Origin: Candidatus Daviesbacteria bacterium
Lineage (GTDB): Bacteria; Patescibacteriota; Microgenomatia; Daviesbacterales; UBA10151
Direction of reading: 5' to 3'
Length of the DNA stretch: 64,000 nt
Assembly: GCA_016186955.1 (NCBI GenBank)
Contig: JACPKP010000009.1
Location: forward strand, 225,595 to 289,594
Positions 29,874 through 50,675 of the stretch are shown piece after piece. The notes under the pieces were generated by a model. It saw nothing but the letters and a program-made list of their open reading frames with translations. It was not told the origin of the DNA and made no database searches. Numbering within the stretch: the stretch's first letter is position 1; each line of letters opens with the position of its first letter. The translations under genes and the position numbers were made by a program.

Positions 29874-30862
29874 TAATCAGAAATATTATATATGATGCTT
29901 GAACCTGTTTTTTCAAATGCAAAAGGGACATGCAATAACTTATTAAATTTTCTTAAAAACTTTTTTTGCATTGAGGGTTCCACAAAGAAAACGATAAACC
30001 CACCACTGCCTGCTCCGAGTAGTTTACCCCCCAACGCACCAGCGCTGATGCCCTCACTGTAAATCTCATCAATTAACTGGTTACTTATATTAGAAGCCAG
30101 GCTTTTTTTAATTATCCAGTTTTCGTGTAGTAGTTTGCCTAAGGTTTGTGCAGAAAAATTAGTGCCGGTTAACTTTTCGTAAGCTTTGGCTGTAATTTTT
30201 GAAAGAGCATGAAGTTCATTAAATTTGTTTGGCGTATTTTTAATAAGTTGTGCTGAAATGTCCGAAGCTCTTCTCTGGAATCCGGTAAAGAACAAAAGTA
30301 TATATTTCTCAAGAGCTTGTATTCGCGACCTGGATATTGCTAAGGGTTCAACGATAATCTTTCCATTTTTTTGAAATAAAATTCTATTTAAGCCTCCGTG
30401 TGCAGCAATGGTTTGGTCCTGTGAACCTACATTTTCCTTAATTTTATTCTGTTCAATTTCTATGGCGTCTCTTGCCAGTTGTTGTTTTGAAACAGATTTT
30501 CCGAGTAAAGCGTATAAGGAATTTAAAAAACCGACTGTAAAGGATGAGCTGGATCCTAAACCTGACATTGCCGGCAAGTCACTGGTATGAACCATCTCAA
30601 TCCCGGAGTTAATATTTAAGAAGTTAAGCGTTTCTTTTACTGCTGGATGTCTGATCTGGTTTATGGACAAAGTTGTTTCCCTATGGGTATATCGGATCCT
30701 GTATTTATATGGGAAAAAAGGAGGGAGATAACGGGTAACAATATAACAATATTTATTGATTGAAGTGCTGATGACAGATCCACCAAATTTACGATACCAT
30801 ATTGGATAATCAGTTCCTCCCCCAAACAGGGAAATCCGGAATGGTGTTCTGGATATTACCAT
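29873..30862 (-). CDS. hddA: GHMP-family sugar kinase, HddA-like (D-glycero-alpha-D-manno-heptose 7-phosphate kinase)
   Basis: MVISRTPFRISLFGGGTDYPIWYRKFGGSVISTSINKYCYIV...DLPAMSGLGSSSSFTVGFLNSLYALLGK...GSQDQTIAAHGGLN lines up with HddA from Aneurinibacillus/Campylobacter (MIITKTPLRVSFVGGGTD...PSGTGLGSSSAF...GKQDQY). Confidence 0.75.
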   Translation of the reverse strand: MVISRTPFRISLFGGGTDYPIWYRKFGGSVISTSINKYCYIVTRYLPPFFPYKYRIRYTHRETTLSINQIRHPAVKETLNFLNINSGIEMVHTSDLPAMSGLGSSSSFTVGFLNSLYALLGKSVSKQQLARDAIEIEQNKIKENVGSQDQTIAAHGGLNRILFQKNGKIIVEPLAISRSRIQALEKYILLFFTGFQRRASDISAQLIKNTPNKFNELHALSKITAKAYEKLTGTNFSAQTLGKLLHENWIIKKSLASNISNQLIDEIYSEGISAGALGGKLLGAGSGGFIVFFVEPSMQKKFLRKFNKLLHVPFAFEKTGSSIIYNISD

Positions 30863-30871
30863 AAAGATTGT

Positions 30872-31855
30872 TTAAACAAATCTTTTTGCATAAAAGACAT
30901 TATATTTTTTGTTTATAACACTACGTTTTTTCAAAAACCAGTCAATCGTTTCTTTGATCCCTTCCTGTAAACTTACTTTAGGATTATAACCAATAGATTG
31001 TGCCCTTTGGATATCCATAATCCTCATCCTATCTCCGCTTTTTTTTGATTTATCCCAAATTACTTTAGGAGGTTTTTCAATACTTTCGCAAATTGTGCTC
31101 ACCAGCTCTTTTATTGTGACGCCGGTCCCGCTTCCTAAGTTTAAAGCGCTCCCATCAGCATGTTTCATTGCTAAAATCATCCCTTCAGCAACATCCCTTG
31201 AGAAAACAAAATCCCGTATTTCGGATCCGTCCCCCCAAACAGTAAGAGGATTTTCGCCGTCTAGGACCCTTCTGATTAGGGAGGGTACGACCATAGCGTT
31301 TTTAGGATCAAAATTATCATAAGGCCCGTAAGTGTTAGCCGGCCTGACTATTGTTGTTTTGTTCCAGCCAAACTCTATTTTATATGCTTCAACCTGCAAT
31401 TCCCCAACTCTTTTTGCCCATCCGCCAAACCAATCCTTATGGGAGGGGAATGTATGCCATACATCGTCCTCATGAAAAATTTTAGCAGGGCCATAGACTC
31501 CGACAGAGCTTGTGTAAAGATACCTTTTTACTCCACTGATCCGTGCTGCCTCCATCATATTAGTGTTGAACAAAACTCCTGGTACGAAGATACTTGCAAC
31601 TTTTTTTGTTGCGATTCCGGCAGATACTTTAATTCCTGCCAAATGAAAAACATAATCTATGCCGCGGCACGCTTTAATGCAATTATCATATGAAGTAAGA
31701 TTTAGTTTCTTAAACTCTACGTCTTTTGGCAAATCCTTATTCCGTTCCATTGAGACAACCCGGACTTTTGCACCCATTTTGTGAAGAATTTCTACAAGCT
31801 GCATTCCGATCATCCCAGTCCCGCCAGTAATAAGAATTTTTTTATTTTTATACAT
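30872..31855 (-). CDS. NAD-dependent epimerase/dehydratase (extended SDR; candidate GDP-heptose/hexose modifying enzyme)
   Basis: KKILITGGTGMIGMQLVEIL and a YGPAK-type YxxxK block (LYTSSVGVYGPAK). Confidence 0.65.
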   Translation of the reverse strand: MYKNKKILITGGTGMIGMQLVEILHKMGAKVRVVSMERNKDLPKDVEFKKLNLTSYDNCIKACRGIDYVFHLAGIKVSAGIATKKVASIFVPGVLFNTNMMEAARISGVKRYLYTSSVGVYGPAKIFHEDDVWHTFPSHKDWFGGWAKRVGELQVEAYKIEFGWNKTTIVRPANTYGPYDNFDPKNAMVVPSLIRRVLDGENPLTVWGDGSEIRDFVFSRDVAEGMILAMKHADGSALNLGSGTGVTIKELVSTICESIEKPPKVIWDKSKKSGDRMRIMDIQRAQSIGYNPKVSLQEGIKETIDWFLKKRSVINKKYNVFYAKRFV

Positions 31856-33045: not shown

Positions 33046-33806
33046 ACAGCCTTTTTAATAAGCAAAGATTCATTTTCAGCAGAAGGGTTTAAGCTATGGT
33101 GTTTTTTCAAATCCCCAAATGAAATTATATCACCAGTGTCCAGGAGGCATGTTTGAGATCCATCGGTTATATTTCCTGTCAGAAGCACCAAAATATCGGG
33201 TTTTGATTGTTTAGTATGATTTATCAAGTGGTTGCTATCGGAAAACTTGACCAAGCTTAAAATACAGTCACCGAACTGTTTCTCTACCCCGTAACGTTTT
33301 TTACTATTATTAAATGATTGATATAATTTATTGTCAAGCTTTGAATAAAATTTTTCATCCTCATATCCTCTTCCTCGTCTTCCATATTTGTCGCTAAACC
33401 TGATTAAGTCCCTTTTGTTGGTCGGTGTTTCTGTTTCTATCACCAACAACCCATTGTTTGAGGTAACTGTTGTAGAATGAAATACTCCTTTGTTAATAAG
33501 CAATCCATGGCAAAGATTAAGTTTGTGGTTTCCACTGAGCGTTTCAACCCTAGCTTCGCCGGATAAAATAATAATAGAGGTTTTTTTATTAGGATGTGCG
33601 TGCATTGAAGTTTGGAAGTTGGGTTTTAAATAAAGCAGCCATACGGCGGTTTGGTTGTTGGAATAAATCAGATATTCATATCCCCATGGCTTTCTTATTA
33701 CCACATTTGAGTAGTCAAAAAAATTATCCAGGAGGTAATCAGGGTTTATTTTAATACTTGACATCTGTCTGATATCTTCGTCGGTTTGATCAATTTTTTT
33801 TACCAT
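33042..33806 (-). CDS. Metal-binding cupin domain protein (possible sugar isomerase/epimerase)
   Basis: Cupin motif 1 with HxH...E (TSMHAHPNKKTSIIILSGEARVE) and a second beta-rich C-terminal half (possible bicupin). Confidence 0.45.
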   Translation of the reverse strand: MVKKIDQTDEDIRQMSSIKINPDYLLDNFFDYSNVVIRKPWGYEYLIYSNNQTAVWLLYLKPNFQTSMHAHPNKKTSIIILSGEARVETLSGNHKLNLCHGLLINKGVFHSTTVTSNNGLLVIETETPTNKRDLIRFSDKYGRRGRGYEDEKFYSKLDNKLYQSFNNSKKRYGVEKQFGDCILSLVKFSDSNHLINHTKQSKPDILVLLTGNITDGSQTCLLDTGDIISFGDLKKHHSLNPSAENESLLIKKAV

Positions 33807-34746
33807 TGGAATTTATAATATATTCTACTGTCTTTACTATTTTACCTGTTGTAGGGGGGAGGTTGTCCAGATGGGGGGCAAATCCGGCAGACCGTTCTTC
33901 CAGTCCGAGCGTTTTGATTGGTTTAAATTTGTTGCCTGATCCGGTGAGTTTTTGGATTATGTCAAAAGCTAGACATTTCAAAGCTCCATTTTCAAAATCA
34001 CCGTCCAGTATCAGTCCTCCAAACCTGCTTTGATTGAGTGAAGCAATAATTTTTTTATTAATTACAAATGGCTTGAGCCATAGCAGATGTATAAGGTTAC
34101 AAACAATGCCATTTCCCTCTAAGGTTTTAACAGCTTCAATGGCGTTGATTCTAGTTGAAGAAATCGCAAATATAGTAACATCAGCTTTAGGTTTAATAAT
34201 ATCTTTCATGTCATAATCTATAGGGAAACTTTTTTTATGCTCACTGATGTACATCGGGTCATCGTGTTCCATAAAATAATTCCAAACCTGTTGGTATTCG
34301 TTGGGTGTCATGGGGGCACAAACAACAATTCCGGGCATCCTAATAAATATACTGTGGTGGCTACCGGATGCCACAGGCCCGATAGCTCCGTCCATGGCTA
34401 TTGAGCGCACAAAAATAGGGCAGGGAATTCCCCACATATCCTTTGATTTTGCTGCGTAATTGACAATGCTTGCAGCGTTGTACCACTGAAAACCCTGGTA
34501 TCTAACTATATAAATTGGCCTTCTGCCCGCTAAGGCCGCCCCTACAGCTATACCTCCGCCGGATACATCAGCCATTGATAATTCAACAAGGCCTTCTTTT
34601 TCACTTAAGTGAGGGATTGTACCACCGACCCAGCCAACAGCTGTTAGACATTGGCCTAATGCCAAACCGTTATTTTTTAACAGGTGATTTCTGGTTATTT
34701 GGCTTATTTTTTCTGCAACAGTCATTTTTTGAGTTGTTTCTTCCAT
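33790..34746 (-). CDS. Thiamine-diphosphate-dependent 2-oxoacid dehydrogenase E1 beta-subunit-like protein
   Basis: LSMADVSGGGIAVGAALAGRRPIYIV...NYAAKSKDMWGIPCPIFVRSIAMDGAIGPVASGSHHS...PGIVVCAPMTPNEYQQV aligns block-for-block with the PDH/BCKDH E1-beta Pyr domain. Confidence 0.65.
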   Translation of the reverse strand: MEETTQKMTVAEKISQITRNHLLKNNGLALGQCLTAVGWVGGTIPHLSEKEGLVELSMADVSGGGIAVGAALAGRRPIYIVRYQGFQWYNAASIVNYAAKSKDMWGIPCPIFVRSIAMDGAIGPVASGSHHSIFIRMPGIVVCAPMTPNEYQQVWNYFMEHDDPMYISEHKKSFPIDYDMKDIIKPKADVTIFAISSTRINAIEAVKTLEGNGIVCNLIHLLWLKPFVINKKIIASLNQSRFGGLILDGDFENGALKCLAFDIIQKLTGSGNKFKPIKTLGLEERSAGFAPHLDNLPPTTGKIVKTVEYIINSNGKKN

Positions 34747-35606
34747 AATTTATCAATAAATTCTTTCGTTTCCTGTTCGATCTTTAAAGCCTGTTTTTCT
34801 AACCCCAAATTTTTAAGATCTTCTTTGACTATTTTAAATCTGTCCCATTCTGGTTCGCTATCTTGTCCGGTGCCATTGTGCCAAAGCACCCTTGTTGTAT
34901 GGATATTTATAAAGCTAGGTAAATTTTTAGCAAGCTTTTTGACATGATGCATAATAAGCCAGGGATCATCGGTGATTTCTACCGCATCCATTCCAAATGC
35001 TTTTGCAACATTAACCATACTCCAGTTTCTTCTAACTGCGACTTTGGTTAAAATTGAAAGTCCATTATCAGTGCAAACAAACAAAACAGGAAGTTTTTTT
35101 GAAGCAGCATAGCCCATTGAACTTATCACATAGTCTTCTTCTGCCGAAGCATCCCCCATAATTGCCAAGACTTTTTGTTTTGACCCCAATGCATATCCTA
35201 CTGCGATTGGAATTTGGTCTCCCATAAGCCCGCTATGGCCAAACATGCCAATCTTCGGGGAATGAATTGATGCAGACCCACCCATGCCTTTGGCGATGCC
35301 GGAAGGCTTGTGCAGTAGTTCGTCAATTAAAGGGACAATTTCTCCCCCGAAAGCTAAATAAATATCATGGCATCTGTGTTGGGCAAAAATATGCGGTTTT
35401 TTATAAGCTATTGATATTGCTGATGAAACAGATTCTTCACCAACTGATAAATAAATCGGCATTTTAATATAACCTTTATCAAAGGCATCTTTGGTATTGA
35501 ATTCGAAATTGCGCGAGATGCACATTTTTTTAAACATCTCCAAAGACTCTTTCTTAGTAAAATGTTTTGAGATATTTTTGATTTCACCGAAGCTTTTTGA
35601 ACGCAT
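34722..35606 (-). CDS. Thiamine-diphosphate-dependent 2-oxoacid dehydrogenase E1 alpha-subunit-like protein (TPP-binding)
   Basis: KGMGGSASIHSPKIGMFGHSGLMGDQIPIAVGYALGSK...LAIMGDASAEEDYVISSMGYAASKKLPVLFVCTDNGLSI aligns with E1-alpha (KGKGGSMHMY...GGNGIVGAQVPLGAGIALA...YGDGAANQG...LPCIFICENNRYGMGT). It is overlapped and coupled with the beta subunit. Confidence 0.65.
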   Translation of the reverse strand: MRSKSFGEIKNISKHFTKKESLEMFKKMCISRNFEFNTKDAFDKGYIKMPIYLSVGEESVSSAISIAYKKPHIFAQHRCHDIYLAFGGEIVPLIDELLHKPSGIAKGMGGSASIHSPKIGMFGHSGLMGDQIPIAVGYALGSKQKVLAIMGDASAEEDYVISSMGYAASKKLPVLFVCTDNGLSILTKVAVRRNWSMVNVAKAFGMDAVEITDDPWLIMHHVKKLAKNLPSFINIHTTRVLWHNGTGQDSEPEWDRFKIVKEDLKNLGLEKQALKIEQETKEFIDKLWKKQLKK

Positions 35607-37001: not shown

Positions 37002-37005
37002 TGGA

Positions 37006-39336: not shown

Positions 39337-39344
39337 AATTTATC

Positions 39345-40138: not shown

Positions 40139-40644
40139 TTTAATTTTAAAACTTGACGTACAATTTCATCAGGTAATTTTTTACCGTCATTTTTAATGAC
40201 CATATCGGGATTTAAAGGTATTTCTGGTTTTATGTCAACCCCTACTACATCTTTAATTTTTCCTGCATGATATTTTTTATATATTTTCTTGAGGTCTCTG
40301 CCAAATAAAACTTTCTTAGGAGCTGTAAGATAAATTTCCTTATAATTTTTAATAAACCTTCTATTCCAATTATGGCAATCATGGAAAAGGGAAATCGTTG
40401 CGCAGACAACATCTAACCCTTGATCTGAAAGCATTTTGCAAATCCTTGAATAAGTTTTAGCTAGTATCCTGCGGTCATTTATAGTGTGACTATGGAGATT
40501 ACCGAAAACCTTTCTCAGCTTATCTCCATCTAAATAAACTACGTTTTTACCGGAAGCCTGCAGTTTTTTATACAGTGCAAATCCAACTGTAGTTTTTCCG
40601 GTTCCGGAGATTCCGGTAATCCACCAAACAACCCCTTTTTTCAT
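40135..40644 (-). CDS. Adenylylsulfate (APS) kinase-like P-loop kinase, Cj1415-like (candidate cytidine diphosphoramidate 3'-kinase)
   Basis: VVWWITGISGTGKTTVGFAL...VYLDGDKLRKVF...RRIL is collinear with CysC (VIWLTGLSGSGKSTLA...LDGDNIR...RR). Confidence 0.7.
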   Translation of the reverse strand: MKKGVVWWITGISGTGKTTVGFALYKKLQASGKNVVYLDGDKLRKVFGNLHSHTINDRRILAKTYSRICKMLSDQGLDVVCATISLFHDCHNWNRRFIKNYKEIYLTAPKKVLFGRDLKKIYKKYHAGKIKDVVGVDIKPEIPLNPDMVIKNDGKKLPDEIVRQVLKLK

Positions 40645-41987
40645 CAGTTTATAGGTAATAGCTTTACCATAACTTGTTTTTTATTATAAAGATCAAACCA
40701 TGCTTTATAAGCCCAAAAACGGATAGCAAAATAATCCCTAATAATTAGTATTAAAAAGACAATAACCAGTATTGGTGTAAAGATTATAATAAATATAGCC
40801 AAAAGTATTTTTATCGCTACGGGATACTTTTGATAAACAGATATAACTTGTGTTGCCAAACTACTGTCAATGCTTCTTATGATAAACATTACCTTCTTTT
40901 GCGAGAGTTTAATTTGTTTTTGTGTGAAAAAAACAAGACGTTCTTTTAAAAGAGAAAACTCTGTTTTAAAAGGTAAAGCTAATGTTAAAAAAACAAATAG
41001 CTTGAGTAATTTATTTCTATACATATTACTTATTTTATACTCCCAATGCTTATACTTAGGATATGCTAGGCACAGCAGCCGAAATTGGTCAAAGCTGTTT
41101 AAATAACTTATTTTTCTATCAATAGTCTGGATTCCGATGCCGGAAATTCTTGGTGACTCAGGTCTATTCCACCATTTCTTACCGTCAAAAGTACTCTCCA
41201 AAAGATGGTTGTCCCAGGGAAGGTTTAACCATTTGCAGATTGCTCTCAAGGTCTCTTTATTTTTTTGGTGTAAATCTTCTAAACGGACCGCTTTTGAGAA
41301 TTTAGTGTAACTACTAAAAAAGGGTCTGAAACCATAGACATAGCGCTCCTCCTTTTTTCCCCAAAGTTGCATGTAATCACAAAGCATTTGAGAAACAGTG
41401 CATTCTAGAGTATTTACCGGAAGATTATTGAACAGGATGTGTTTAATCCCGGAGTTGATAGATGGGATGGGCGCCCTAACCATGTGCAGGAATTTTGCTT
41501 TGGGAAAATCAGATAAAAGATATTGAGCATGTTTTTTGGGTAGGCTGTGAATAGGAAAGAAGATTACTTTTGGTTGATGAATTTTTCTACCTAAAGCATA
41601 GGCATAAGAGAGGTAGGTAGCAATAAAAAAATTTTTTCTGGATGGATAAATTTTGCCCAAAAGATTTTTTAATAAACCACTAAAATGTTTTTCTTTAATA
41701 CAGACAGATTGATTCATTCTGGGTCCAAGCTGGTTTAGACCATGGCTTTCGGGAGCGCCTTTTTTAGTAAACCAATATTTATGATAGTCGGTAAAAGCAT
41801 TAATTAATTCCTCTGATCTAGAATACCTTTTACCATAACTTTCCCAAAAAGCAAAAAAAGATCTGCTATATAGGGCTGGAGTCATTAAAACTTTTGGGTG
41901 ATTGTCAAACAAGCTATGTAAAAAAAGGGTGCCACTGGAGCCATAGTTTTGGACAGCTACAACTGAGATATTTTTTGGAATTCTCAT
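40644..41987 (-). CDS. Sulfotransferase-fold protein with a C-terminal membrane anchor (candidate phosphoramidate transferase, or a genuine sulfotransferase)
   Basis: The N-terminal 5'-PSB-like P-loop VQNYGSSGTLFLHSLFDNHPKV resembles PRSGTTLLHxLLxxHPxV of Sulfotransfer_3 enzymes. The C-terminus has 2 TM segments (LKLFVFLTLALPF..., AIKILLAIFIIIFTPILVIVFLILII). Confidence 0.5.
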   Translation of the reverse strand: MRIPKNISVVAVQNYGSSGTLFLHSLFDNHPKVLMTPALYSRSFFAFWESYGKRYSRSEELINAFTDYHKYWFTKKGAPESHGLNQLGPRMNQSVCIKEKHFSGLLKNLLGKIYPSRKNFFIATYLSYAYALGRKIHQPKVIFFPIHSLPKKHAQYLLSDFPKAKFLHMVRAPIPSINSGIKHILFNNLPVNTLECTVSQMLCDYMQLWGKKEERYVYGFRPFFSSYTKFSKAVRLEDLHQKNKETLRAICKWLNLPWDNHLLESTFDGKKWWNRPESPRISGIGIQTIDRKISYLNSFDQFRLLCLAYPKYKHWEYKISNMYRNKLLKLFVFLTLALPFKTEFSLLKERLVFFTQKQIKLSQKKVMFIIRSIDSSLATQVISVYQKYPVAIKILLAIFIIIFTPILVIVFLILIIRDYFAIRFWAYKAWFDLYNKKQVMVKLLPIN

Positions 41988-42898
41988 AAAATATTTTTGT
42001 TGTACCAGGTAATAGTTTTTTTGATGCCATCTTCAATCTTTGTTTTTGGAACCCAGTTAAATACTTTTTTACAGTAGGAAGTGTCCATTACTTTATAAGG
42101 TGACCCATCAGGTTTTGAAGTATCGAAAACTAACTTTCCTCTAAAACCAGCAGCAACTTGAATCATCAAGGCAAGTTTTTTTATGGAAATTCCAATTCCT
42201 GAAGAGATATTAATAGGGAAAGGATCTGTACGGGTTTTGATTGATTTGATAAATGCTTCAACAAGGTCATCTACATAGACCCAATCCCTCACCGGTTTAC
42301 CGCTTCCCCAGACGGTAACTTCTTTTAAAGAGTTTTCTTTTGCATCCATAATTTTTCTGATAAGCGCACCCAGGGCATAAGATTTTTCGGGGTCAAAATA
42401 ATCATCGGGCCCGTAAACATTTCCTACAATCAAGTTTGAGTACTGTATTCCAAACTGTCTGTTAAATGCCATGGAATTAATATATGTATGCCTGCTGGTT
42501 GAGCCTATGACTAGGACCGATTCATGCATTGGGCCATTTCCCCAGAACTGTTCTTTCAAGAGACCATTATTTACCGGTGGGTAAGCTGAATTTGATAATA
42601 TATTAATTAATTTTTCAACCCCTGATAGTCTGGCGGATTCCTGAAGATTTAAACTAACTAAAGTGTTATTTATAAATATTTCCCCCGGATGTTTGTTGAC
42701 ATAGGAAATACCTCCGGTATCTATTGCGCAATTTATTATTATTTGAGGTTTTTGTTTTTTAAAGAATATTTTAGCTTGGTTAAGGTTTTTAAAATTAATT
42801 TTACCTGAGGTTATAACATTATAACCTCTGGTTTTTAATATTTTTACAGTTCTTTTGCCAATAAATCCGCCTGCTCCGGCAACGAAGATTCTTTTCAT
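41984..42898 (-). CDS. fcl: GDP-L-fucose synthase-like (Fcl/WcaG family) NDP-4-keto-6-deoxy-sugar epimerase/reductase
   Basis: MKRIFVAGAGGFIGKRTVKIL...LNQAKIFFKKQKPQIIINCA parallels the E. coli Fcl N-terminus (KQRIFIAGHRGMVG...LLDSRAVHDFF...IDQVYLAA). It has a short Rossmann start and is about 300 aa. Confidence 0.6.
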   Translation of the reverse strand: MKRIFVAGAGGFIGKRTVKILKTRGYNVITSGKINFKNLNQAKIFFKKQKPQIIINCAIDTGGISYVNKHPGEIFINNTLVSLNLQESARLSGVEKLINILSNSAYPPVNNGLLKEQFWGNGPMHESVLVIGSTSRHTYINSMAFNRQFGIQYSNLIVGNVYGPDDYFDPEKSYALGALIRKIMDAKENSLKEVTVWGSGKPVRDWVYVDDLVEAFIKSIKTRTDPFPINISSGIGISIKKLALMIQVAAGFRGKLVFDTSKPDGSPYKVMDTSYCKKVFNWVPKTKIEDGIKKTITWYNKNIL

Positions 42899-43861
42899 TT
42901 ACAGAATATTTTCCATATACCAACGGATAGTTTTATTAATTCCTTCATCGATACCGATCTTTGGTGCCCAGTGGAATTTTTTTCTGGATTTTGAGATGTT
43001 TATGGAGAGTTTAGTGGGGATTGTAGGTTTTGAAATATCATAAAAGATATTTAATCTTTTTCCTGATATGGCAATAATCTTTTTGACTAAATTTGCAATA
43101 GAAATTGATTTCCCAAGTCCTAAGTTAAAAACATCATAATCATAATCCTGTTTTTTAAGTACTAGTTCAATAAAACTGACCAAGTCTGAAACATATAATA
43201 GATCTCTTTCTTCTTCACCCTTACCCCAAACATTTATTTTATCTCCATCCTTGGCAGTTAACACCTTGGTGATTGTAGCCCCAAATACGTGAGATTTATC
43301 CAAATCATATTTATCATAAGGCCCGTAGATATTACTGTGGCGGATTACAGTAAATTTTGACCTTTTTAACCGAGAATAAAATTCACAAAGTTTTTCTACA
43401 TAAACCTTCATCCATCCGCCGCCAAAATAACTTGTGTACATTGGTACATTAAGATCTAAGTCAGTTTCTTTCACCGGTTTGCCGGTATTTGGTTGGTACA
43501 TTACAGTGCAGCTTAAAAAAATTACCTGGGGGATTGAATGGTCGTATGCTGCCTGCAAGAGCATAGAGTTCATGATTAAATTATTGGTGATATGGATGTA
43601 AGGCCTGGTGATTATGTCTTTTGCACCAGAAGTTACTGCAGCTGCCTGAATTAATACATCAAAGCCTTTGGTAATCCCGGAGACCTGATTTTTATTGGTG
43701 AGATCTGCCTTAATTAATTTCGGATTTTTAGAAAATTTGTTAGTATGGTATGTTCCATATACATCAAGGCCTTTTTTTTTGGATAGTTCCTCGAATAAAT
43801 TCCTGCCAATGAAACCGCTAGCCCCGCAAATTAACACCCGCCTTTTTTTCAAATATGGCAT
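42899..43861 (-). CDS. NAD-dependent nucleotide-sugar epimerase/dehydratase (extended SDR)
   Basis: VLICGASGFIGRNLFEEL. The track start at 43930 overlaps the divergent plus-strand gene, so the internal Met (MPYLKKRRVLICGASG) at 43861 is preferred. This is the first gene of the 16-gene minus-strand operon. Confidence 0.65.
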   Translation of the reverse strand: MPYLKKRRVLICGASGFIGRNLFEELSKKKGLDVYGTYHTNKFSKNPKLIKADLTNKNQVSGITKGFDVLIQAAAVTSGAKDIITRPYIHITNNLIMNSMLLQAAYDHSIPQVIFLSCTVMYQPNTGKPVKETDLDLNVPMYTSYFGGGWMKVYVEKLCEFYSRLKRSKFTVIRHSNIYGPYDKYDLDKSHVFGATITKVLTAKDGDKINVWGKGEEERDLLYVSDLVSFIELVLKKQDYDYDVFNLGLGKSISIANLVKKIIAISGKRLNIFYDISKPTIPTKLSINISKSRKKFHWAPKIGIDEGINKTIRWYMENIL

Positions 43862-43924
43862 CCTTATTGCAGAGTATATAACAAAGAGCAGGCTAAGCCA
43901 AGGACTGATATAATAGTACCCAAG

Positions 43925-44500
43925 ATGCATAGTTTGATTGTTTTAGCAGGTTTACCAGGCACTGGCAAAACAACGGCAGCAAAATATTTAACCCAAGTCT
44001 TAAACTATAAATATATCGACCAAAATAGTATCAGGAGACAATTTGGTTTTAAAAAAATGCCCAAAACCCAAGATAAAATTTTAAGAACTATTGATCAACA
44101 AATCTTAAAATATTTAACTTTAAAAGAAGGTGTTGTTGTTGATTCAGTCCATAGGTTCTCGTTCAGAAGGCAACAGCTTTATGGTATAGCATCTAGTTGC
44201 GATGCGAACGTTATAATCATAGAAGTTATTTGTCCTCAAGTTTTAGCAAAAGAGAGAATTAGAAAAAGGCCAAAGTCTGACGGTTTATTGTCTGACCCCA
44301 ATCAAATTAGAGTTTATGACAAGCTAAAAAATTTATGGGAAGAGATAGATATTGATTTTAAATATCCAGGCAACAGTCATGTATCTTACATTCAATTTGA
44401 CAGCAGTTTGCCAAAAGTAAATAGAAAATTGATTACTTCAGGTATGAATAAATTAATTAATGGGATAGAAAAAACGCTTTTAAATATTAACCGATGTTAA
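43925..44500 (+). CDS. P-loop NTPase kinase (AAA_33/zeta-toxin/CPT-like small kinase)
   Basis: Walker A at residues 8-15 (LAGLPGTGKTTAAKYL). 191 aa. The substrate is unknown. Confidence 0.45.
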   Translation: MHSLIVLAGLPGTGKTTAAKYLTQVLNYKYIDQNSIRRQFGFKKMPKTQDKILRTIDQQILKYLTLKEGVVVDSVHRFSFRRQQLYGIASSCDANVIIIEVICPQVLAKERIRKRPKSDGLLSDPNQIRVYDKLKNLWEEIDIDFKYPGNSHVSYIQFDSSLPKVNRKLITSGMNKLINGIEKTLLNINRC

Positions 44501-45147
44501 ATATTTTCCGGAAAATAAAAGCAGTAGGTTTTGATTTAGATAGGACACTATATAAAGAGAATCCACAAGTTGCCAATAAGATTAAAGTCAGTTTAGTTAA
44601 TAAAGTCTTAAACAAAAAACCAGAATTGAAGTCATTTAAGGAAGCTGAAGAATTTTATGATAAGTTATATATGGCCATTGGAAGTAATACGCAAACTTTA
44701 AGAAAAATAGGTTTTGTTAATGCAGAACAGATTATGTATGAATGTTTGTCAAATGCCGATATATCAGAATTTTTATCTCATGATGACAGACTTTGTAAGT
44801 TATTCAGTAAACTACAAAAAAAATATTGGCTTTTTTTAATTTCAACTAAACCGTCAGATTTAGCAAAAAAGGCTTTAATTAAATTGGGGCTAAGTCCGGA
44901 TATTTTTAAATTCTGTATTCATGGTGACAATCCTCAAGCCAAAACCAAAACAGATGGTTTAATGTTTAAATACTTGTTAAAACTATCTAAACTGGTTCCC
45001 GGAAAACATGTCTATATAGGAGATAGTTTAAAAGCGGATATATTACCTGCTAAAAACTTGGGGATTTTAACTATCGCTGTGGGGGATATTAACGAGGCAA
45101 ACGCTAAAATTTCCAATATTTATGAAATCGAAAATCTGTTACTTTAA
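44494..45147 (+). CDS. HAD-superfamily hydrolase
   Basis: Motif I VGFDLDRTLY, a later lysine, and a GDSLKAD-type motif IV (YIGDSLKADI). Confidence 0.55.
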   Translation: MLNIFRKIKAVGFDLDRTLYKENPQVANKIKVSLVNKVLNKKPELKSFKEAEEFYDKLYMAIGSNTQTLRKIGFVNAEQIMYECLSNADISEFLSHDDRLCKLFSKLQKKYWLFLISTKPSDLAKKALIKLGLSPDIFKFCIHGDNPQAKTKTDGLMFKYLLKLSKLVPGKHVYIGDSLKADILPAKNLGILTIAVGDINEANAKISNIYEIENLLL

Positions 45148-45944
45148 AATATTGACCTGAGTGTTCCACCATCAATACCGATACAGGCGCCGGTAATGAA
45201 TTTTGCATCATCAGAGGCCAAAAATGCAACAGCATTGGCAACATCTTCTTCCTGCCCAAGTGTATTTAAAGGAACCTTTGATTTTTCTTCTTTCTCCATA
45301 ATGCCCGCAGCCTCTTTTATTGCAACTTTTAACTCAGCAGCCCGTTTTTGAACTCTCTCTCTCCAATCCTGGCCGGTAAGCGAACTGGGACAAACAGAGT
45401 TTACTAAAATTCCATCAACTGCGAAAAGATTGGATAAGTGTTTGCTTAAGTTAAGAGAGGCGGCTTTTGAGGCAGAATAATGAGGGTTAAATTTTCCCGG
45501 TTGACGGGCAGGGACAGTTGAAATGTTGATTATTCTGGGGGATTTTGATTTCTGAAGATAGGGAAGCGCTGCTTTGGTGAAATAAACCATTGACATAAAG
45601 TTTAATTCAAAGGAATCGAAGTAGTTTTTGGGTGATAAATCCAAGAAACTTCCGAACTTTTCAACCCCCCCCAAATTATTAACCAAAATATCAAGTTGCC
45701 CAACCTCTTTACCTAAAGCTTTAAAAAGTTTCTTTACTGTCGGAAGTTTTTTCCCGTCAACCTGATAAAAATAAACCTTAACGCCTCTTTTTTGGATTTC
45801 ATCTGCCGTCTTTTTCAGCCTGTTTAAGTTTCTTGCACAAAGAACCACATCTGCGCCTTTTTGTGCAAGCATCAAAGCAATAGTTTTTCCTAAACCGGTG
45901 CTACTGCCTGTTACTAATGCAACTCTTCCTTTAAGGTTATCCAT
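45144..45944 (-). CDS. Classical short-chain dehydrogenase/reductase (FabG-like SDR)
   Basis: RVALVTGSSTGLGKTIALMLAQKGADVVLCARN (TGxxxGxG), NNLG, and the S...YxxxK triad region (YSASKAA). Confidence 0.7.
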   Translation of the reverse strand: MDNLKGRVALVTGSSTGLGKTIALMLAQKGADVVLCARNLNRLKKTADEIQKRGVKVYFYQVDGKKLPTVKKLFKALGKEVGQLDILVNNLGGVEKFGSFLDLSPKNYFDSFELNFMSMVYFTKAALPYLQKSKSPRIINISTVPARQPGKFNPHYSASKAASLNLSKHLSNLFAVDGILVNSVCPSSLTGQDWRERVQKRAAELKVAIKEAAGIMEKEEKSKVPLNTLGQEEDVANAVAFLASDDAKFITGACIGIDGGTLRSIF

Positions 45945-46876
45945 TAAATGTTTGAGAATTGGTTTCTTTTAATGATTTTATATCCTTTAATAAGTTCAGC
46001 AATGCCTTCTCCTAGGGATATTTTAGCCCTGAAACCTGTTTTTTCAATCTTTTCATTGGATACAATGTAATTTCTTTTATCAGGATCTCTCCCTATTTTA
46101 GCTTCAATAAAATAAAAATCAGGCATTTGTCTTTTAACCTCCTCACAAAGCTCCAATTTGGAGATATTTGCATCAGACATGCCTAAGTTGTAAGGCTCAT
46201 TTTTCATTTTTTCAAAATTGTTTATGCAATGGATAAAACCTTTGGCAATATCCCGGATATGGATAAAATTCCTTTTAAAGTTTGCTTCAAATAAAACAAT
46301 AAATCGGTCGTTTACAGCCCTATACACAAAATCATTTACCAGCAAATCCAATCTCATCCTGGGGCTAATCCCAAAAACTGTTGCCAGGCGGAGAACTATG
46401 GCATTGCCTTTATTTAAGATTGCTTTTTCTGCCGATACCTTGGTTTTTCCGTAAATTGATATAGGTTTAAGGGGTGAGTTTTCTGTGCAATACATCTCTT
46501 TTTTACCGACACCGTAACCGCTGTTGGTATTAGGGTAAATAATTTTCTGCGCTTTTTTTCTTAATTTTAAAATTAATTTTATCGCGTCCAGGTTAATGGA
46601 TTTTGCCTCCGCTGGAAATTTATCGCAGATTGGTGCACCAACTAAAGCTGCGAGGGGAATGATAATATCTTGGTTTTTAATCATTTTATGCATCAGTTTC
46701 TCATTTCTAACATCTCCACGGATAATAGTTAGGTTGGGGTTATTACAACAGTCCAAAAGTGAAGATTGGTTGTACATAAAGTTATCAACAACTGTAACTT
46801 CATGCCCATCATTTAATAGGGTAGGGGTGAGTATTGAACCTATATATCCGGCTCCGCCGGTAACCAATATTTTCAT
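45944..46876 (-). CDS. NAD-dependent nucleotide-sugar epimerase/reductase (extended SDR)
   Basis: MKILVTGGAGYIGSILTPTLL and YGKTKVSAEK (YxxxK). Confidence 0.65.
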   Translation of the reverse strand: MKILVTGGAGYIGSILTPTLLNDGHEVTVVDNFMYNQSSLLDCCNNPNLTIIRGDVRNEKLMHKMIKNQDIIIPLAALVGAPICDKFPAEAKSINLDAIKLILKLRKKAQKIIYPNTNSGYGVGKKEMYCTENSPLKPISIYGKTKVSAEKAILNKGNAIVLRLATVFGISPRMRLDLLVNDFVYRAVNDRFIVLFEANFKRNFIHIRDIAKGFIHCINNFEKMKNEPYNLGMSDANISKLELCEEVKRQMPDFYFIEAKIGRDPDKRNYIVSNEKIEKTGFRAKISLGEGIAELIKGYKIIKRNQFSNI

Positions 46877-46932: not shown

Positions 46933-47718
46933 CTAAATTCCTAAAAATTGAACCAAGTTGTTATGCAAAATTGGGTTAGAAGCCAGTATTGACTCATCAC
47001 TGATTGTCCATTGTTCATTTCTTAAGTTTGTCACAATTCCCCCTGCTTCCCTGATAATTACCACCGCTGCAGCCATATCCCAAGGTTCCAGGCTGGTTGC
47101 CATATATGCATGCATCTTACCCTCTGCTGTAAGAGCAAGTGGAACAGAGGCACAACCTGAAGAGAAGTTGCAGGTGATGCCATCAGGGCTCAGCAACCTT
47201 TCTAGATATTTTATATCCCCGGTTCTATTTAATTTTCCAAAATCGATTCCCATGAGTGTCCTGTTGAGGTCTATGTTTTGTGCTACCTGTATTGGTTCAT
47301 TGTTTTTGCTTGCGCCACCTTTAGCAAAAGCCACATAAAGATCATTTCTTTTAGGTGCATAGATTACACCCAAAACTGGATTTAATCCTTCCGCAAGGGA
47401 TAAACAGACGCTGAAATGGTCGTTGATGCCGGAGGTATATAGAAGGGTACCATCCAGCGGATCTACTACCCAATTAAGCTTTGATCCCATATCCCGGTCA
47501 ATGTTTTCTTCAGAGAGGATATTATGCGAAGGAAACCGTTTGATTATCGCCTCCCTGATTAAGTTGTCACTTAAATCATCAACCTCAGTTTTAAAATTGG
47601 TACGAAGTTTCCATTCCAGTCTGTGCATTTTTTCGAAATTATCCATTAACAACTCTCCTGCCTTAAGGCTTAAGTCAACAGCAAAATCTTTATATAAAAT
47701 TAACTCAGATTCAGTCAT
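46933..47718 (-). CDS. Inositol monophosphatase / CysQ-family phosphatase (candidate 3'-phosphonucleotide phosphatase)
   Basis: The family motifs are SEEN (metal-binding EE), WVVDPLDGT and WDMAAAVVIIREAGG. Confidence 0.65.
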   Translation of the reverse strand: MTESELILYKDFAVDLSLKAGELLMDNFEKMHRLEWKLRTNFKTEVDDLSDNLIREAIIKRFPSHNILSEENIDRDMGSKLNWVVDPLDGTLLYTSGINDHFSVCLSLAEGLNPVLGVIYAPKRNDLYVAFAKGGASKNNEPIQVAQNIDLNRTLMGIDFGKLNRTGDIKYLERLLSPDGITCNFSSGCASVPLALTAEGKMHAYMATSLEPWDMAAAVVIIREAGGIVTNLRNEQWTISDESILASNPILHNNLVQFLGI

Positions 47719-48880
47719 AGGATTTATTTACAACTTGAGTTATATACAAAATGTCTTTTTTTGTTAAGGATTCATTATTCGGCAGGAAGAATCCACAAGA
47801 GTGAACCTTATCAGAAATTGGATGGTTGAATTTGCCATACCCTTCAAACCAAAAAGGATGCAGGCCTAAATTTCCCGCAGAAAAAAGTCTGGTTTCTATA
47901 TTATTTTTAACCAGTTGGGTGACAATTCTTTTTCTGTGTGCAACATTTTTGGCAATTGCGCCAAAAGAGATACTGCAGGGTTTTGATAAATTATTCCATT
48001 TTTGAAAATCAACTGTTTTTAAATTTTGCGCATATACCATATGGTTCTCCATTCTTACTGTCGAAACCTCATCCGCTTTTTTCATCATCTCCAAACCTAA
48101 AAAAGCATTGAGGTCGGTTGAGCGCAAATTAAACCCCGGAACAAAAAATGTAAAAGGCTTATGGAATTCATCTATCCCGTATTTTTGCATAAATGCGGAT
48201 TCTGTTTCACTGTCCAAATCTTTACCCCAACCATGACTTCTAAGCATTAACAACAGGTCGTAGAGCTTTTTACTATTCGTATTGACCATACCTCCTTCGA
48301 TTGTTGAAAGCTGATGCCCGAAATAAAAGGAAAATGATGACATATCAGAAAATGATCCTACCTTTTTGCCGTCATATTCAGCCCCTAATGCAGCGCAAGC
48401 GTCGTCCAAAAGCAGGAAACCGTATTTTTCCTGCAGGCTTTTGATTTGATAAATGTTACTTGGGATACCCAAAACCTGGATCATTACTACCGCAGCCGGG
48501 TCATGTTTTTTCAGTAACTCTTCCAGGTGACCAACATCCAACCCGAAATTATTTTTATCCGCACCGCACATTATCGGTTCAAAACCGAATTGGATAAATG
48601 GGCTGATGGTGGTAACCCAGCCAACGCTCGGGACAATTACTTTTTTGTTTTTCAAATCCCCGCCCAACAGCGCAGTATATGCCATAAGTAAGTTAGCTGA
48701 TGAGCCGGAATTGCAAAAAACCGCATATTTTGTACCAATCCACTGCGCCCATTGTTTTTCAAATTCAACAGTTAACTCTCCTTTAGTATACTGAACAGTT
48801 TCTTTTAGCCAGCCAATTAAATTTGTGATATCCTGGGGGTTAATAATTTTTTCCGCAAGTTTATATTGCATGCTTGACAA
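47711..48880 (-). CDS. DegT-family PLP/PMP-dependent enzyme with His replacing the catalytic Lys (ColD/E1-type NDP-4-keto-6-deoxyhexose 3-dehydratase-like)
   Basis: The DegT N-terminal block is YAVFCNSGSSANLL. The active-site block SFSFYFGHQLSTIEGG has His where aminotransferases have Lys (compare ColD SFYSHHIATMEGG). It is adjacent to a Gmd-like gene. Confidence 0.6.
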   Translation of the reverse strand: MSSMQYKLAEKIINPQDITNLIGWLKETVQYTKGELTVEFEKQWAQWIGTKYAVFCNSGSSANLLMAYTALLGGDLKNKKVIVPSVGWVTTISPFIQFGFEPIMCGADKNNFGLDVGHLEELLKKHDPAAVVMIQVLGIPSNIYQIKSLQEKYGFLLLDDACAALGAEYDGKKVGSFSDMSSFSFYFGHQLSTIEGGMVNTNSKKLYDLLLMLRSHGWGKDLDSETESAFMQKYGIDEFHKPFTFFVPGFNLRSTDLNAFLGLEMMKKADEVSTVRMENHMVYAQNLKTVDFQKWNNLSKPCSISFGAIAKNVAHRKRIVTQLVKNNIETRLFSAGNLGLHPFWFEGYGKFNHPISDKVHSCGFFLPNNESLTKKDILYITQVVNKSYD

Positions 48881-48930
48881 ACCCGTTAAACATTAATATA
48901 TTTGTTTGTGAAATTCAATAACTAAATATA

Positions 48931-49728
48931 TTGAGCATGGTGGAAAAAATTACTGTTAACAATATCGCAAGTGTGGGAATTATTTATAGAGAGTCGGACC
49001 CAAAAAGTATTTTTATAGATATAAAAGATGGCGGGTATCCAATTAAGGCGTTTAGGTGGATGCACTGCCCTATTGGCGGCAACTGGATTGGCAAAAATGC
49101 ACTTGCTGATGCTAATCCCTTAGCAACTTTCCGCCGGGAACTTCATGAGGAACTATCGTTTGAAAAAGAAAGGATTTCCACCGGAGAAATGAAGCAGCTG
49201 GGTATTGACTGCGAACAACAATCCTACACTGTACCCAAAAAAGATGCAATACCAACAGAAAAAGATCACGAAAGCTTAAATTATCTAAAACTTATTTTTA
49301 CAAATGACGCTCAGCCTTTTGGAGACTTTAGGGTAACTGTCCCAAAATCAATATTTGATAAGGGTGTGCCAGATAATAAGCTAGGGGATACTGCGTCTTT
49401 ACTCCCCTACTATCTAGTGTCTGTTAAGGAAAATGACTGGCGGACACTTGAGTATCTGCATGAAAAATTCGGCAATCTTTCAGTAGAGTCCTTAGCTGTT
49501 ATTACCTCACTTGATGAGATAATCAGCACACCAAGATATACCTGTTGCGGACATGATAGGATTATGAAAGAATTTTTTACACAAATGGGTTGTGCCGGCG
49601 CCTGCCAATACCCGCTTCTTGAAGGCATTACCTGTGAGCCTATGGGAATGCCGTTTGACTCATATGATAAATACCTTGAATATTATGAGGTTTTGCGCCA
49701 CCCTTTTAGTAGTTCTCTTCGTGCATGA
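48931..49728 (+). CDS. Hypothetical protein with a degenerate Nudix-like box
   Basis: GKNALADANPLATFRRELHEELSF approximates Gx5Ex7REUxEExGU, with E to D, G to S and a one-residue insertion. Otherwise I cannot recognise it. Confidence 0.3.
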   Translation: MSMVEKITVNNIASVGIIYRESDPKSIFIDIKDGGYPIKAFRWMHCPIGGNWIGKNALADANPLATFRRELHEELSFEKERISTGEMKQLGIDCEQQSYTVPKKDAIPTEKDHESLNYLKLIFTNDAQPFGDFRVTVPKSIFDKGVPDNKLGDTASLLPYYLVSVKENDWRTLEYLHEKFGNLSVESLAVITSLDEIISTPRYTCCGHDRIMKEFFTQMGCAGACQYPLLEGITCEPMGMPFDSYDKYLEYYEVLRHPFSSSLRA

Positions 49729-50675
49729 TCCAGCAAAAACTGGACACTACTTTCAAAACTTATTTTTGGTTTCCAGCCTGTTGCCTTTTTAAATTTTAAG
49801 ATATTTGGAATTTGCAATGTGACATCAGAGGGCCTTAGTAAAGCAGGGTCTACTTTGGAGGGAATTTTACATTTTGCATATTTTTTAAGTAGGGTTAAAA
49901 ACTCCCCAACAGTTATGACAGTATTACCACCTATATTATAAACTTCCCCAAATTGACACCTTTGGGTTGCAACCCAATAAGCCTCCATTGCATCTCTGAC
50001 GTCAATTAAAGTTCGGACTGAGTTCAAGTTACCATGAACAAGCTCTGTTTGTACCCCAGCCTCGATTATTGCTACCTGTTTGGCAAAACTTGTGGCAAAT
50101 AAGTCTTCACGCCGGGGGTTAATATATGCAAACATTCTGGTACGGATGATTTTCATCCCGTAACTTCTGAAATATGTATAACCCAGCAGATCCTGGGCGA
50201 CTTTTGAGACAGCGTAGGGGTTTGACGGGTTAATCGGGCAGTCTTCTTTAATCGGGACATTTTTAGGGTCAACCTGCCCATAAACTTCTGATGTACTGCA
50301 AATTTGCAAAACAGGATCTAACTTAAGATGTCTGATTGCCTCCAGAAGGTTGGCAGTTCCTAAAATGTTGTTTTGCAGTACTGCAAGCGGGGTGAGAAAA
50401 GAGGTCCGGACATTTGCATGGGAGGCGAGATGGAAAATTACGTCAGGTTTAATCTTTTTTAAGGTTGTCAAAATGGATGAAAAATCATTTAAATCGCACT
50501 CATAAAGTTTTACTTTTTTAAAAATATCAGCCAGATTATTTGCAGAGGTTGTACTGTGCCACCTTGATATCCCGAAGACCTTCATGTGCGGGTGGTGATT
50601 TATAATGTATTCTGCTAGATAGCTGCCTCCAGACCCTGTAATGCCGGTAATAAATACTCTCTTGAAGTTACGCAT
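49683..50675 (-). CDS. gmd: GDP-mannose 4,6-dehydratase-like (Gmd family SDR)
   Basis: VFITGITGSGGSYLAEYIINHH matches the Gmd ITGVTGQDGSYLAEFLL block. The YxxxK region is YAVSKVAQDLL. The 3' end overlaps the convergent gene by 46 nt. Confidence 0.65.
   Translation of the reverse strand: MRNFKRVFITGITGSGGSYLAEYIINHHPHMKVFGISRWHSTTSANNLADIFKKVKLYECDLNDFSSILTTLKKIKPDVIFHLASHANVRTSFLTPLAVLQNNILGTANLLEAIRHLKLDPVLQICSTSEVYGQVDPKNVPIKEDCPINPSNPYAVSKVAQDLLGYTYFRSYGMKIIRTRMFAYINPRREDLFATSFAKQVAIIEAGVQTELVHGNLNSVRTLIDVRDAMEAYWVATQRCQFGEVYNIGGNTVITVGEFLTLLKKYAKCKIPSKVDPALLRPSDVTLQIPNILKFKKATGWKPKISFESSVQFLLDHARRELLKGWRKTS

Follow-up and report, generated by a model that had tools for sequence, protein, structure and literature searches.

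A probable ColD-type sugar 3-dehydratase and its Cj1427-like partner in a glycan gene region of a Candidatus Daviesbacteria genome

Which sugar is built by the deoxysugar genes of a 64,000-nucleotide stretch of a Candidatus Daviesbacteria genome (assembly GCA_016186955.1, contig JACPKP010000009.1, positions 225,595 to 289,594; hereafter the window, with coordinates counted from its first nucleotide)? The window (G+C approximately 33%) consists almost entirely of glycan biosynthesis genes, encoding more than 15 glycosyltransferases, PMT-type transferases, an ABC-2 exporter, a Wzx-like flippase, methyltransferases and many short-chain dehydrogenases/reductases (SDRs). The question arises from a DegT-family protein (47711-48880) that has a histidine in place of the lysine that binds pyridoxal phosphate (PLP), and from a nearby Gmd-like gene (49683-50675, here SDR330). 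The original prediction, made by eye, joined these two open reading frames (ORFs), both of which exist, with two SDRs as candidates for the part of ColC into a module for a GDP-3,6-dideoxyhexose such as colitose. The comparisons reported here agree with the enzyme class and point to a different product, a 3-deoxy or 3,6-dideoxy sugar derived from GDP-heptose: with a probability of roughly 0.6, the module deoxygenates a GDP-4-keto-heptose at C3 and then branches and reduces the product.

The histidine-type DegT protein

The DegT ORF encodes 389 amino acids from a TTG start, and the database protein (P0001, 386 amino acids) begins three codons downstream at an ATG (48871), which is the probable true start. 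The protein matches the Pfam family DegT_DnrJ_EryC1 (PF01041) end to end (211.7 bits, profile positions 7-359 of 360) and is predicted to adopt the aspartate-aminotransferase-type fold of that family over its full length. Its FSFYFGHQLSTIEGG motif contains His189, which HMMER aligned with His188 of ColD (PDB 2gms; 170.4 bits, E = 4.6e-49, 346 residues aligned) and His220 of E1 (3bcx; 125.5 bits), so the register chosen by eye was right; mutant entries of ColD have lysine or asparagine in this column. Perosamine synthase (Per, 107.4 bits) ranks third among solved relatives, after ColD and E1. Of the two outcomes that would have refuted the original prediction, a lysine at the catalytic position and clustering with GDP-perosamine synthases, neither is seen. 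ColD is a distant relative (31.2% identity over 314 amino acids), and at least 150 representatives of 50%-identity clusters are nearer to the DegT protein than ColD is.

Conservation was assessed in 120 close homologues, in the loci of 80 species (one genome per GTDB species, DegT relatives at 53-72% identity) and in 110 full-length representatives of 50%-identity clusters (29-49% identity, from an exhaustive HMMER search). The histidine is invariant in the first two sets (120/120; 80/80, comprising Nitrospirota, Elusimicrobia, Patescibacteria, Chlamydiae and Acidobacteria) and present in 108 of the 110 representatives, none of which has a lysine there. Such conservation speaks against a sequence error or an accidental substitution. 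Residues in the ColD columns G56, S57, W88, D159, S183, F240, N248 and R331 are kept across the 120 homologues, with family replacements of E162 by alanine, R219 by lysine and S187 by glycine; the roles of G56, S57, W88, D159, S183, N248', F240', R219 and R331 in ColD we take to be those given in the papers of Cook and Holden. The original prediction had also proposed looking for the [2Fe-2S] ligands of E1. The E1 segment CYCAPGCDNTC (DCYCAPGCDNTC), which holds three of them, aligns to a cysteine-free gap in the DegT protein; the five cysteines of the protein are scattered (positions 56, 105, 162, 302 and 362), and none of the 110 representatives has a cysteine-rich insertion. Because the histidine is conserved across all three sets, with no lysine and no cysteine-rich insertion among the representatives, the protein is placed by its sequence in a large, old clade of histidine-type enzymes free of iron-sulfur (Fe-S) clusters. 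Substitution of histidine for lysine is the hallmark of 3-dehydratases, and a four-cysteine [2Fe-2S] motif is found in E1 and SpnQ but not in ColD (PMC8987622).

The DegT protein is thus almost certainly a ColD-type sugar 3-dehydratase, and there is good support for its predicted chemical class, a ColD-like removal of the 3-hydroxyl from a GDP-4-keto sugar; a GDP-linked substrate is plausible. It resembles ColD (WbdK of E. coli O55:H7, the GDP-4-keto-6-deoxy-D-mannose 3-dehydratase) and the C3-dehydratases of C. jejuni HS:5 and HS:11 in its DegT fold, its histidine in place of lysine, its lack of Fe-S ligands, its retained PLP-, pyridoxamine phosphate (PMP)- and nucleotide-contact columns and its GDP-sugar context. 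With E1 (RfbH/DdhC/AscC) and SpnQ it shares the histidine-type DegT class that deoxygenates C3 of 4-keto sugars, but both the four-cysteine motif and the external reductase of those enzymes are absent here.

A reductive 3-deoxygenation of the E1/SpnQ type, acting on a CDP- or dTDP-4-keto-6-deoxyhexose and needing an electron-transfer partner, is what current annotation implies: the best NCBIfam match of the DegT protein is RfbH (190 bits), and the source annotations of its homologues name E1 ('CDP-6-deoxy-D-xylo-4-hexulose-3-dehydrase'). The RfbH score is, however, far below the cut-off of 423, ColD outscores E1, and the context enzymes are all of GDP-sugar types. Such a mechanism is very improbable and was rejected, the Fe-S cysteine segment being missing and no E3-like reductase being encoded in the window or the conserved cassette described below. 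Even less credible is a 4-aminotransferase or other PLP enzyme with a histidine by chance, making a 4-amino sugar. The DegT family is one of aminotransferases, SpnQ without its reductase shows aminotransferase activity (PMC8987622), and a class I/II aminotransferase, a separate protein, accompanies the cassette in Nitrospira; against this, the protein has no lysine for an internal aldimine, the histidine is strictly conserved, and the characterised histidine-type members are all 3-dehydratases (PMC8987622).

Several members of the wider clade have unusual architectures. In P0298, P0327, P0347 and P0390, which belong to four separate 50%-identity clusters, the DegT domain is split by an intein (Intein_splicing plus a LAGLIDADG homing-endonuclease domain) inserted just past the equivalent of residue ~193, about four residues beyond the catalytic histidine. 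Natural fusions of a histidine-type DegT domain with an N-terminal extended SDR occur among P0353, P0287, P0384, P0401 and P0281; P0353 has a strong Gmd-type SDR domain (448 bits), and the partner domain in P0281 (60% identical to the DegT protein of the window) is a family-2 glycosyltransferase. The SDR-DegT fusions support direct coupling of SDR to dehydratase.

The window encodes a second histidine-type DegT protein (TTSFYGSHIITALGFGG; 16567-17802, plus strand), which scores 368 bits against RfbH/E1 (cut-off 423), shares 30% identity with ColD and 27% with the first, lacks the Fe-S cysteines of E1 and lies in an operon with glycosyltransferases and the ABC-2 exporter. Two distinct 3-deoxygenations may thus be encoded in the window.

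Partner genes and the nature of the substrate

One of the two SDRs put forward as ColC (45944-46876, here SDR310) gave the strongest match of the study, to PDB 6vo6 (410.9 bits, E = 3e-122; 57.8% identity over 308 amino acids, gap-free). The 6vo6 chain was identified as Cj1427 by the primer Cj1427cF918 (PMC3546167), which encodes RAFKMMKV, a sequence found in the chain at the expected place. Cj1427 acts on GDP-heptose with tightly bound NADH by a ping-pong mechanism (PMC10680097), the NADH being recycled with alpha-ketoglutarate (PMC10680097, PMC7949155). SDR310 is accordingly annotated, by this similarity, as a Cj1427-type GDP-heptose C4-dehydrogenase and not as an epimerase/reductase, and is lost as a candidate for ColC.

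The survey of 80 loci (41 Nitrospirota, 14 Elusimicrobia and 9 Patescibacteria, plus Chlamydiae, Acidobacteria and others), of which 45 have full flanks and supply the counts out of 45 below, reveals a recurrent cassette. A Cj1427-like gene is present in 72 of the 80 loci (43/45 with full flanks), always on the strand of the DegT gene and adjacent to it within 300 bp in 35, and orthologues of SDR330 are found in only 13 of the 80; the constant partner of the dehydratase is the Cj1427-like gene, not the Gmd-like gene. The loci also contain an HddA-like kinase (39/45), an HddC-like nucleotidyltransferase (36-38/45), B12-binding radical SAM genes (34-37/45) and, within 10 kb of the DegT gene, a thiamine-diphosphate (ThDP) enzyme, either an E1-alpha/beta-like pair or a YerE-like single chain (36/45). 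Five loci of the candidate phyla radiation (CPR; Patescibacteria) keep the trio SDR330-DegT-SDR310 at approximately 70% identity, together with two Fcl-like SDRs, a GHMP kinase, a nucleotidyltransferase and a ThDP enzyme pair; survey loci L006, L007 and L014 have the contiguous order GmhA, HddA-like GHMP kinase, SDR330, DegT, SDR310. In the window the parts of this module (HddC-like transferase, HddA-like kinase, SDRs, ThDP pair) are scattered over 21 kb, all on the minus strand.

The complete genome of Ca. Nitrospira defluvii (FP929003.1, 2259735-2280877) carries the cassette beside FlgK and flagellin genes, in the order PilZ (YcgR-like), DegT, Cj1427-like, kinase, transferase, class I-II aminotransferase, B12-radical SAM, YerE-like ThDP enzyme, B12-radical SAM, and resembles an island for flagellin glycosylation that would make a heavily modified sugar. 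The contig of L014 (CAZSQB010000001.1), labelled as uncultured Gammaproteobacteria, encodes cassette proteins that share 84-93% identity with their counterparts in the CPR locus L006 (GmhA 87%, E1-beta 91%, the SDR termed SDR256 93%); because of this identity it is suggested to be a mis-binned CPR contig or the result of a very recent transfer.

SDR330 (330 amino acids) is Gmd-like at the level of the family (Pfam GDP_Man_Dehyd, PF16363, 228.9 bits), as originally predicted, but falls short of a canonical Gmd, with 145.7 bits against the NCBIfam gmd equivalog (TIGR01472, cut-off 415) and 98-130 bits against canonical Gmds (123 bits for E. coli Gmd, 1db3). Its best solved relative is the C. jejuni GDP-heptose 4,6-dehydratase (7us5; 201.9 bits, 36.4% identity), followed closely by the reductase Rmd (2pk3; 195.7 bits, 36.7% identity). 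It belongs with Gmd, DdahA/WcbK/DmhA and Rmd among the extended SDRs and has STSEVYG and YxxxK motifs. Its orthologues are 69-74% identical in CPR loci and directly follow GmhA-HddA in L006 and L007. SDR330 is a probable GDP-heptose 4,6-dehydratase.

The near equality of these matches also fits a reading in which SDR330 is an Rmd/DmhB-type C4-reductase that ends the pathway. The 4-keto sugar would then come solely from the Cj1427-like enzyme, and a 3-deoxyheptose still bearing its 6-hydroxyl would result. Most loci indeed have a Cj1427-like gene and no SDR330 orthologue, and Cj1427 plus a C3-dehydratase suffices in vitro for GDP-3-deoxy-4-keto-heptose. SDR330, however, keeps the STSEVYG motif of Gmd and DdahA and partly keeps the RW-containing loop after beta-2 that is present in the dehydratase and absent from Rmd (identity and scores being equal, the loop is the only feature that favours a dehydratase); in L006 and L007 it stands upstream of the DegT gene and directly after precursor genes; and the cassette already has several Fcl-like SDRs as possible reductases. 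An Rmd-type role is possible but doubtful.

Activation of a heptose is suggested by the GHMP kinase of the window, 51-54% identical to the kinase that L006 and L007 encode between GmhA and the Gmd-like SDR, and by the neighbouring nucleotidyltransferase; their best NCBIfam matches are HddA (156.5 bits, cut-off 600) and HddC (149.6 bits, cut-off 300), the latter followed by mannose-1-phosphate guanylyltransferase (120.7 bits). In the related locus L004, a SIS-domain protein scores 211 against the GmhA equivalog cut-off of 209.45, and a HAD-family phosphatase scores 178.7 against the GmhB cut-off of 178; in orthologous loci such precursor genes adjoin the cassette. GmhA is present in 5 of the 45 full-flank loci; Gram-negative carriers of the cassette would be expected to have GmhA and GmhB elsewhere for lipopolysaccharide.

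Several points weigh against a heptose substrate. The chief gap in the argument for this genome is the lack of GmhA and GmhB: neither was found in the 64-kb window, where tblastn with three GmhA and two GmhB sequences from related loci gave a best E value of 0.3, nor in the recovered flanks (approximately 6 kb to the right and 2 kb to the left), whose genes are all glycosyl- or methyltransferases. The HddA-like and HddC-like genes score far below the equivalog cut-offs, and the nucleotidyltransferase also resembles the mannose-1-phosphate enzyme. SDR330 resembles Rmd, a reductase, no less than it does the heptose 4,6-dehydratase. We know of no 3-deoxyheptose with a free 6-hydroxyl in a natural glycan. 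Since DdahA also converts GDP-mannose, at a lower rate (PMC7949155), the family of SDR330 is compatible with hexose substrates too. Characterised C3-dehydratases for hexoses and heptoses share 62-67% identity with one another, but the DegT protein shares just 31% with ColD, and its substrate is therefore assigned by analogy only. Searches of databases and literature found no experimentally characterised member of this histidine-type subfamily, and a literature search on Patescibacteria with heptose, dehydratase or glycosylation found nothing.

Some of the same points speak for the colitose module of the original prediction, in which SDR330 would make GDP-4-keto-6-deoxymannose from GDP-mannose, the DegT protein would act as ColD and an Fcl-like SDR as ColC, yielding GDP-L-colitose or another GDP-3,6-dideoxyhexose. 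A ColD-type DegT protein adjoins a Gmd-family SDR, and such a pair is naturally fused in the wider clade; the window lacks GmhA and has a nucleotidyltransferase resembling mannose-1-phosphate guanylyltransferase, a cupin with a weak match to a phosphomannose isomerase (PMI) domain and, at 41984-42898, an SDR resembling Fcl and ColC; and enzymes of the DdahA type accept GDP-mannose. That SDR, the second of the two originally proposed as ColC, is the nearest thing to ColC in the window, and this likeness held (175.9 bits to GDP-L-fucose synthase), but it lies outside the conserved cassette and is window-specific, being 27-30% identical to any SDR of related loci. SDR330 is far below the Gmd equivalog cut-off and nearer to the heptose dehydratase and Rmd, and its orthologues directly follow heptose precursor genes in other loci; the conserved Cj1427-type partner, a predicted GDP-heptose dehydrogenase, has no role in colitose synthesis, nor do the ThDP enzymes and extra SDRs; and identity to ColD is low. 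Compared with the ColD orthologues of the colitose pathway, there is no association with a canonical Gmd and ColC. A colitose-type product is unlikely: the Cj1427-type partner, the non-canonical Gmd, the HddA- and HddC-like genes and the ThDP enzymes leave that prediction unsupported.

A proposed heptose pathway and its known counterparts

If it works as its homologues ColD and the HS:5 C3-dehydratase of C. jejuni do, the DegT protein would have its PLP converted by L-glutamate to PMP, which would form a ketimine with the C4 carbonyl of a nucleoside diphosphate-4-keto sugar; His189 would take the C4' proton of PMP, the 3-hydroxyl would be expelled, and hydrolysis of the resulting ene-amine would give the 3-deoxy-4-keto sugar and ammonia, with no need for an Fe-S cluster or reductase partner. 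The GDP-sugar would be supplied by the HddA-like kinase and the HddC-like guanylyltransferase. Its 4-keto derivative would come from SDR310, which keeps the 6-hydroxyl and would lead to a 3-deoxy product, and in this organism also from the DdahA/Gmd-like SDR330, which would lead to a 3,6-dideoxy product. The alpha-ketoglutarate that the dehydratase would form from glutamate could feed re-oxidation of the NADH of the dehydrogenase, so the two core enzymes may be stoichiometrically coupled.

This scheme has counterparts in C. jejuni, where HS:5 and HS:11 make GDP-3,6-dideoxyheptoses with a 4,6-dehydratase and a ColD-like C3-dehydratase, and where Cj1427 plus that C3-dehydratase yields GDP-D-glycero-3-deoxy-4-keto-heptose in vitro, listed by its authors as a 'novel' modification (PMC10440746, PMC10680097). 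Cj1427 in C. jejuni feeds C3/C5 epimerases and a C4-reductase to give D-glycero-L-gluco-heptose, whereas SDR310 sits with a 3-dehydratase; a pairing achieved for C. jejuni only in vitro is the rule in the cassette loci. By analogy, the cassette looks like the natural counterpart of that artificial mixture. Unlike the ColD systems, it constantly pairs the 3-dehydratase with a C4-dehydrogenase instead of a 4,6-dehydratase, and no single finishing enzyme of the ColC type is conserved.

The ThDP enzyme near the cassette suggests further C-C elaboration, unlike colitose. AviB1/AviB2, Pau11/Pau12 and YerE add acetyl branches at C4 of 4-keto sugars (PMC4753412), and the combination of 4-keto-sugar enzymes, ThDP enzyme and ketoreductase seen here is also that of yersiniose (E1 and YerE), paulomycose (Pau11/Pau12) and eurekanate (AviB1/AviB2); those pathways, in contrast, use CDP- or dTDP-hexoses (or pentoses), and the substrate here is probably a GDP-heptose. 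By this analogy the ThDP pair of the window would probably extend the 3-deoxy-4-keto product at C4, with an acetyl or hydroxyethyl group as the putative branch, and the final sugar is probably carbon-branched. The Fcl-like and classical SDRs would act as reductases, and the glycosyltransferases of the window would transfer the sugar to a surface glycan.

A wider proposal can be made tentatively, at less than even odds: that the four-gene cassette (3-dehydratase, Cj1427-like, HddA-like and HddC-like, usually with a ThDP enzyme nearby), widespread in Nitrospira, Elusimicrobia, Patescibacteria and others, is a natural route to GDP-3-deoxy-D-glycero-heptoses, and to 3,6-dideoxyheptoses where a 4,6-dehydratase is added, branched at C4 as a 'heptose yersiniose', a class unreported from nature. 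Because the cassette adjoins flagellin genes in Ca. Nitrospira defluvii, a role in flagellin glycosylation is suggested there; in CPR bacteria, cell-surface glycans are the suggested destination.

Other genes of the window and biological meaning

The enzymes of the module and their neighbours are listed in Table 1.

Table 1. Predicted features of the module, with window coordinates, strand and basis of assignment
Feature	Coordinates	Strand	Basis
Probable ColD-type nucleotide-sugar 3-dehydratase, DegT family, His189, Fe-S-free	47711..48880	-	Pfam, HMMER comparison with ColD and E1
Probable GDP-heptose 4,6-dehydratase (SDR330), Gmd/DdahA/Rmd-family SDR, accessory, mainly CPR loci	49683..50675	-	Profile and PDB matches
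Predicted Cj1427-type GDP-heptose C4-dehydrogenase (SDR310)	45944..46876	-	PDB 6vo6 match
GHMP kinase, HddA-like (D-glycero-D-manno-heptose 7-phosphate kinase)	29873..30862	-	Best NCBIfam match HddA
Sugar-1-phosphate nucleotidyltransferase, HddC-like (guanylyltransferase)	29163..29873	-	Best NCBIfam match HddC
ThDP enzyme subunit pair, E1-alpha-like (34722-35606) and E1-beta-like (33790-34746), candidate two-carbon branch-adding enzyme	33790..35606	-	Pfam
Nudix-fold protein, no Pfam family, divergent from the DegT gene, possibly a GDP-sugar hydrolase, accessory	48931..49728	+	AlphaFold, Foldseek
Inositol-monophosphatase-family sugar-phosphate phosphatase	46933..47718	-	Pfam Inositol_P, 168.5 bits
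Classical SDR (adh_short), candidate ketoreductase	45144..45944	-	Pfam adh_short, 158.5 bits
Fcl/GME-like extended SDR, conserved in CPR modules, candidate epimerase or C4-reductase	42899..43930	-	NCBIfam Fcl, 137 bits (cut-off 500)
GDP-L-fucose-synthase-like SDR	41984..42898	-	NCBIfam Fcl, 210 bits (cut-off 500); PDB 7ll6 GDP-L-fucose synthase, 175.9 bits
Fcl/GME-like extended SDR, conserved in CPR modules	30872..31855	-	NCBIfam Fcl, 147 bits (cut-off 500)
Metal-binding cupin, 254 amino acids	33042..33806	-	Pfam MannoseP_isomer, 25.9 bits (cut-off 23.6)

The Nudix-fold protein had neither a Pfam nor an NCBIfam match and has 40 homologues, all from CPR bacteria, in which a degenerate Nudix box keeps RE..EE (R67, E68, E71 and E72 conserved). 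Its AlphaFold model (pLDDT 93.3) has as its top Foldseek match in PDB the GDP-mannose mannosyl hydrolase of E. coli (1rya, E = 2.9e-4), all remaining matches being Nudix proteins; a nearest structure of this kind fits a GDP-sugar context. L004 and L008 have the gene, and L006 and L007 lack it. The start of the phosphatase gene overlaps the stop of the DegT gene by 8 nucleotides, and because of this overlap the two may be translationally coupled; its best NCBIfam matches are all below their cut-offs, its L008 orthologue is 48% identical, and it could be a sugar-bisphosphate phosphatase replacing GmhB in this variant of the module. HAD-family phosphatases are also encoded in the window.

The classical SDR has orthologues in L008 (45% identity), L012 and L038 (48% and 51%). 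The two Fcl/GME-like SDRs, for which PDB matches are generic only, are 53-57% (42899-43930, in L004, L006, L007 and L008) and 53-60% (30872-31855) identical to their orthologues. The subunits of the ThDP pair (Pfam E1_dh/TPP_enzyme_C and Transket_pyr/Transketolase_C) are 61% and 71% identical to those of L008. The cupin has an invariant HxH…H metal site (H69, H71, H110) and recurs in L008 and L012, which have this variant of the module, adjoining a DJ-1/PfpI protein and a HAD-family phosphatase. Two roles were weighed for it, a C3/C5 epimerase and a PMI-like enzyme standing in for GmhA: the Pfam match to the PMI domain is marginal, no PDB sequence matched, and the AlphaFold model (pLDDT 93.5) gave only generic cupin and bicupin matches (quercetinase, oxalate decarboxylase, BacB, AerE).

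Between these genes lies a set (35658-41987, minus strand) that resembles the O-methyl-phosphoramidate pathway of C. jejuni (Cj1415-Cj1418). It includes a protein with PPDK_N and PEP-utilizers domains (37006-39336; 986 bits on PRK05849, which we take to be the Cj1418 glutamine-kinase family), an amidotransferase resembling gamma-glutamyl-CDP-amidate hydrolase (129.8 bits, cut-off 250) fused to a nucleotidyltransferase, like Cj1417 plus Cj1416 (35658-37001), an APS-kinase-family protein like Cj1415 (40135-40644), a methyltransferase (39380-40138) and a sulfotransferase-fold protein (40644-41987) that could be the phosphoramidate transferase, because the donor resembles 3'-phosphoadenosine 5'-phosphosulfate. 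A plain sulfation pathway is an alternative reading of this set. Elsewhere (23082-25337, plus strand), a 751-amino-acid fusion joins a nucleotide-sugar 6-dehydrogenase of the UDP-glucose dehydrogenase type (329 bits) to a C-terminal Fcl/GalE-like extended SDR. Scans of the window for promoters (42 observed versus 36.4 ± 6.1) and terminators (9 versus 9.1) were at chance level.

What was originally noticed is in itself modest, a module whose deoxysugar chemistry is familiar and whose sugar was apparently misidentified; the interest lies in the cassette, which is widespread, uncharacterised and mis-annotated. The labels that current pipelines give to the DegT protein, 'aminotransferase' or 'CDP-hexulose 3-dehydrase (E1)', are both probably wrong, and a ColD-type, GDP-heptose-linked assignment would correct the annotation of hundreds of genomes. 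This member of the Patescibacteria invests tens of kilobases in chemistry like that of the Campylobacter capsule, combining probable heptose modification with phosphoramidate-type genes. That a Cj1427-type enzyme and a thiamine enzyme constantly accompany the dehydratase predicts an undescribed surface sugar, whose carriers include Nitrospira, the chief nitrite-oxidising bacteria of wastewater plants, and the poorly understood, ultra-small Patescibacteria, for which surface glycans matter because these bacteria are thought to live attached to host cells.

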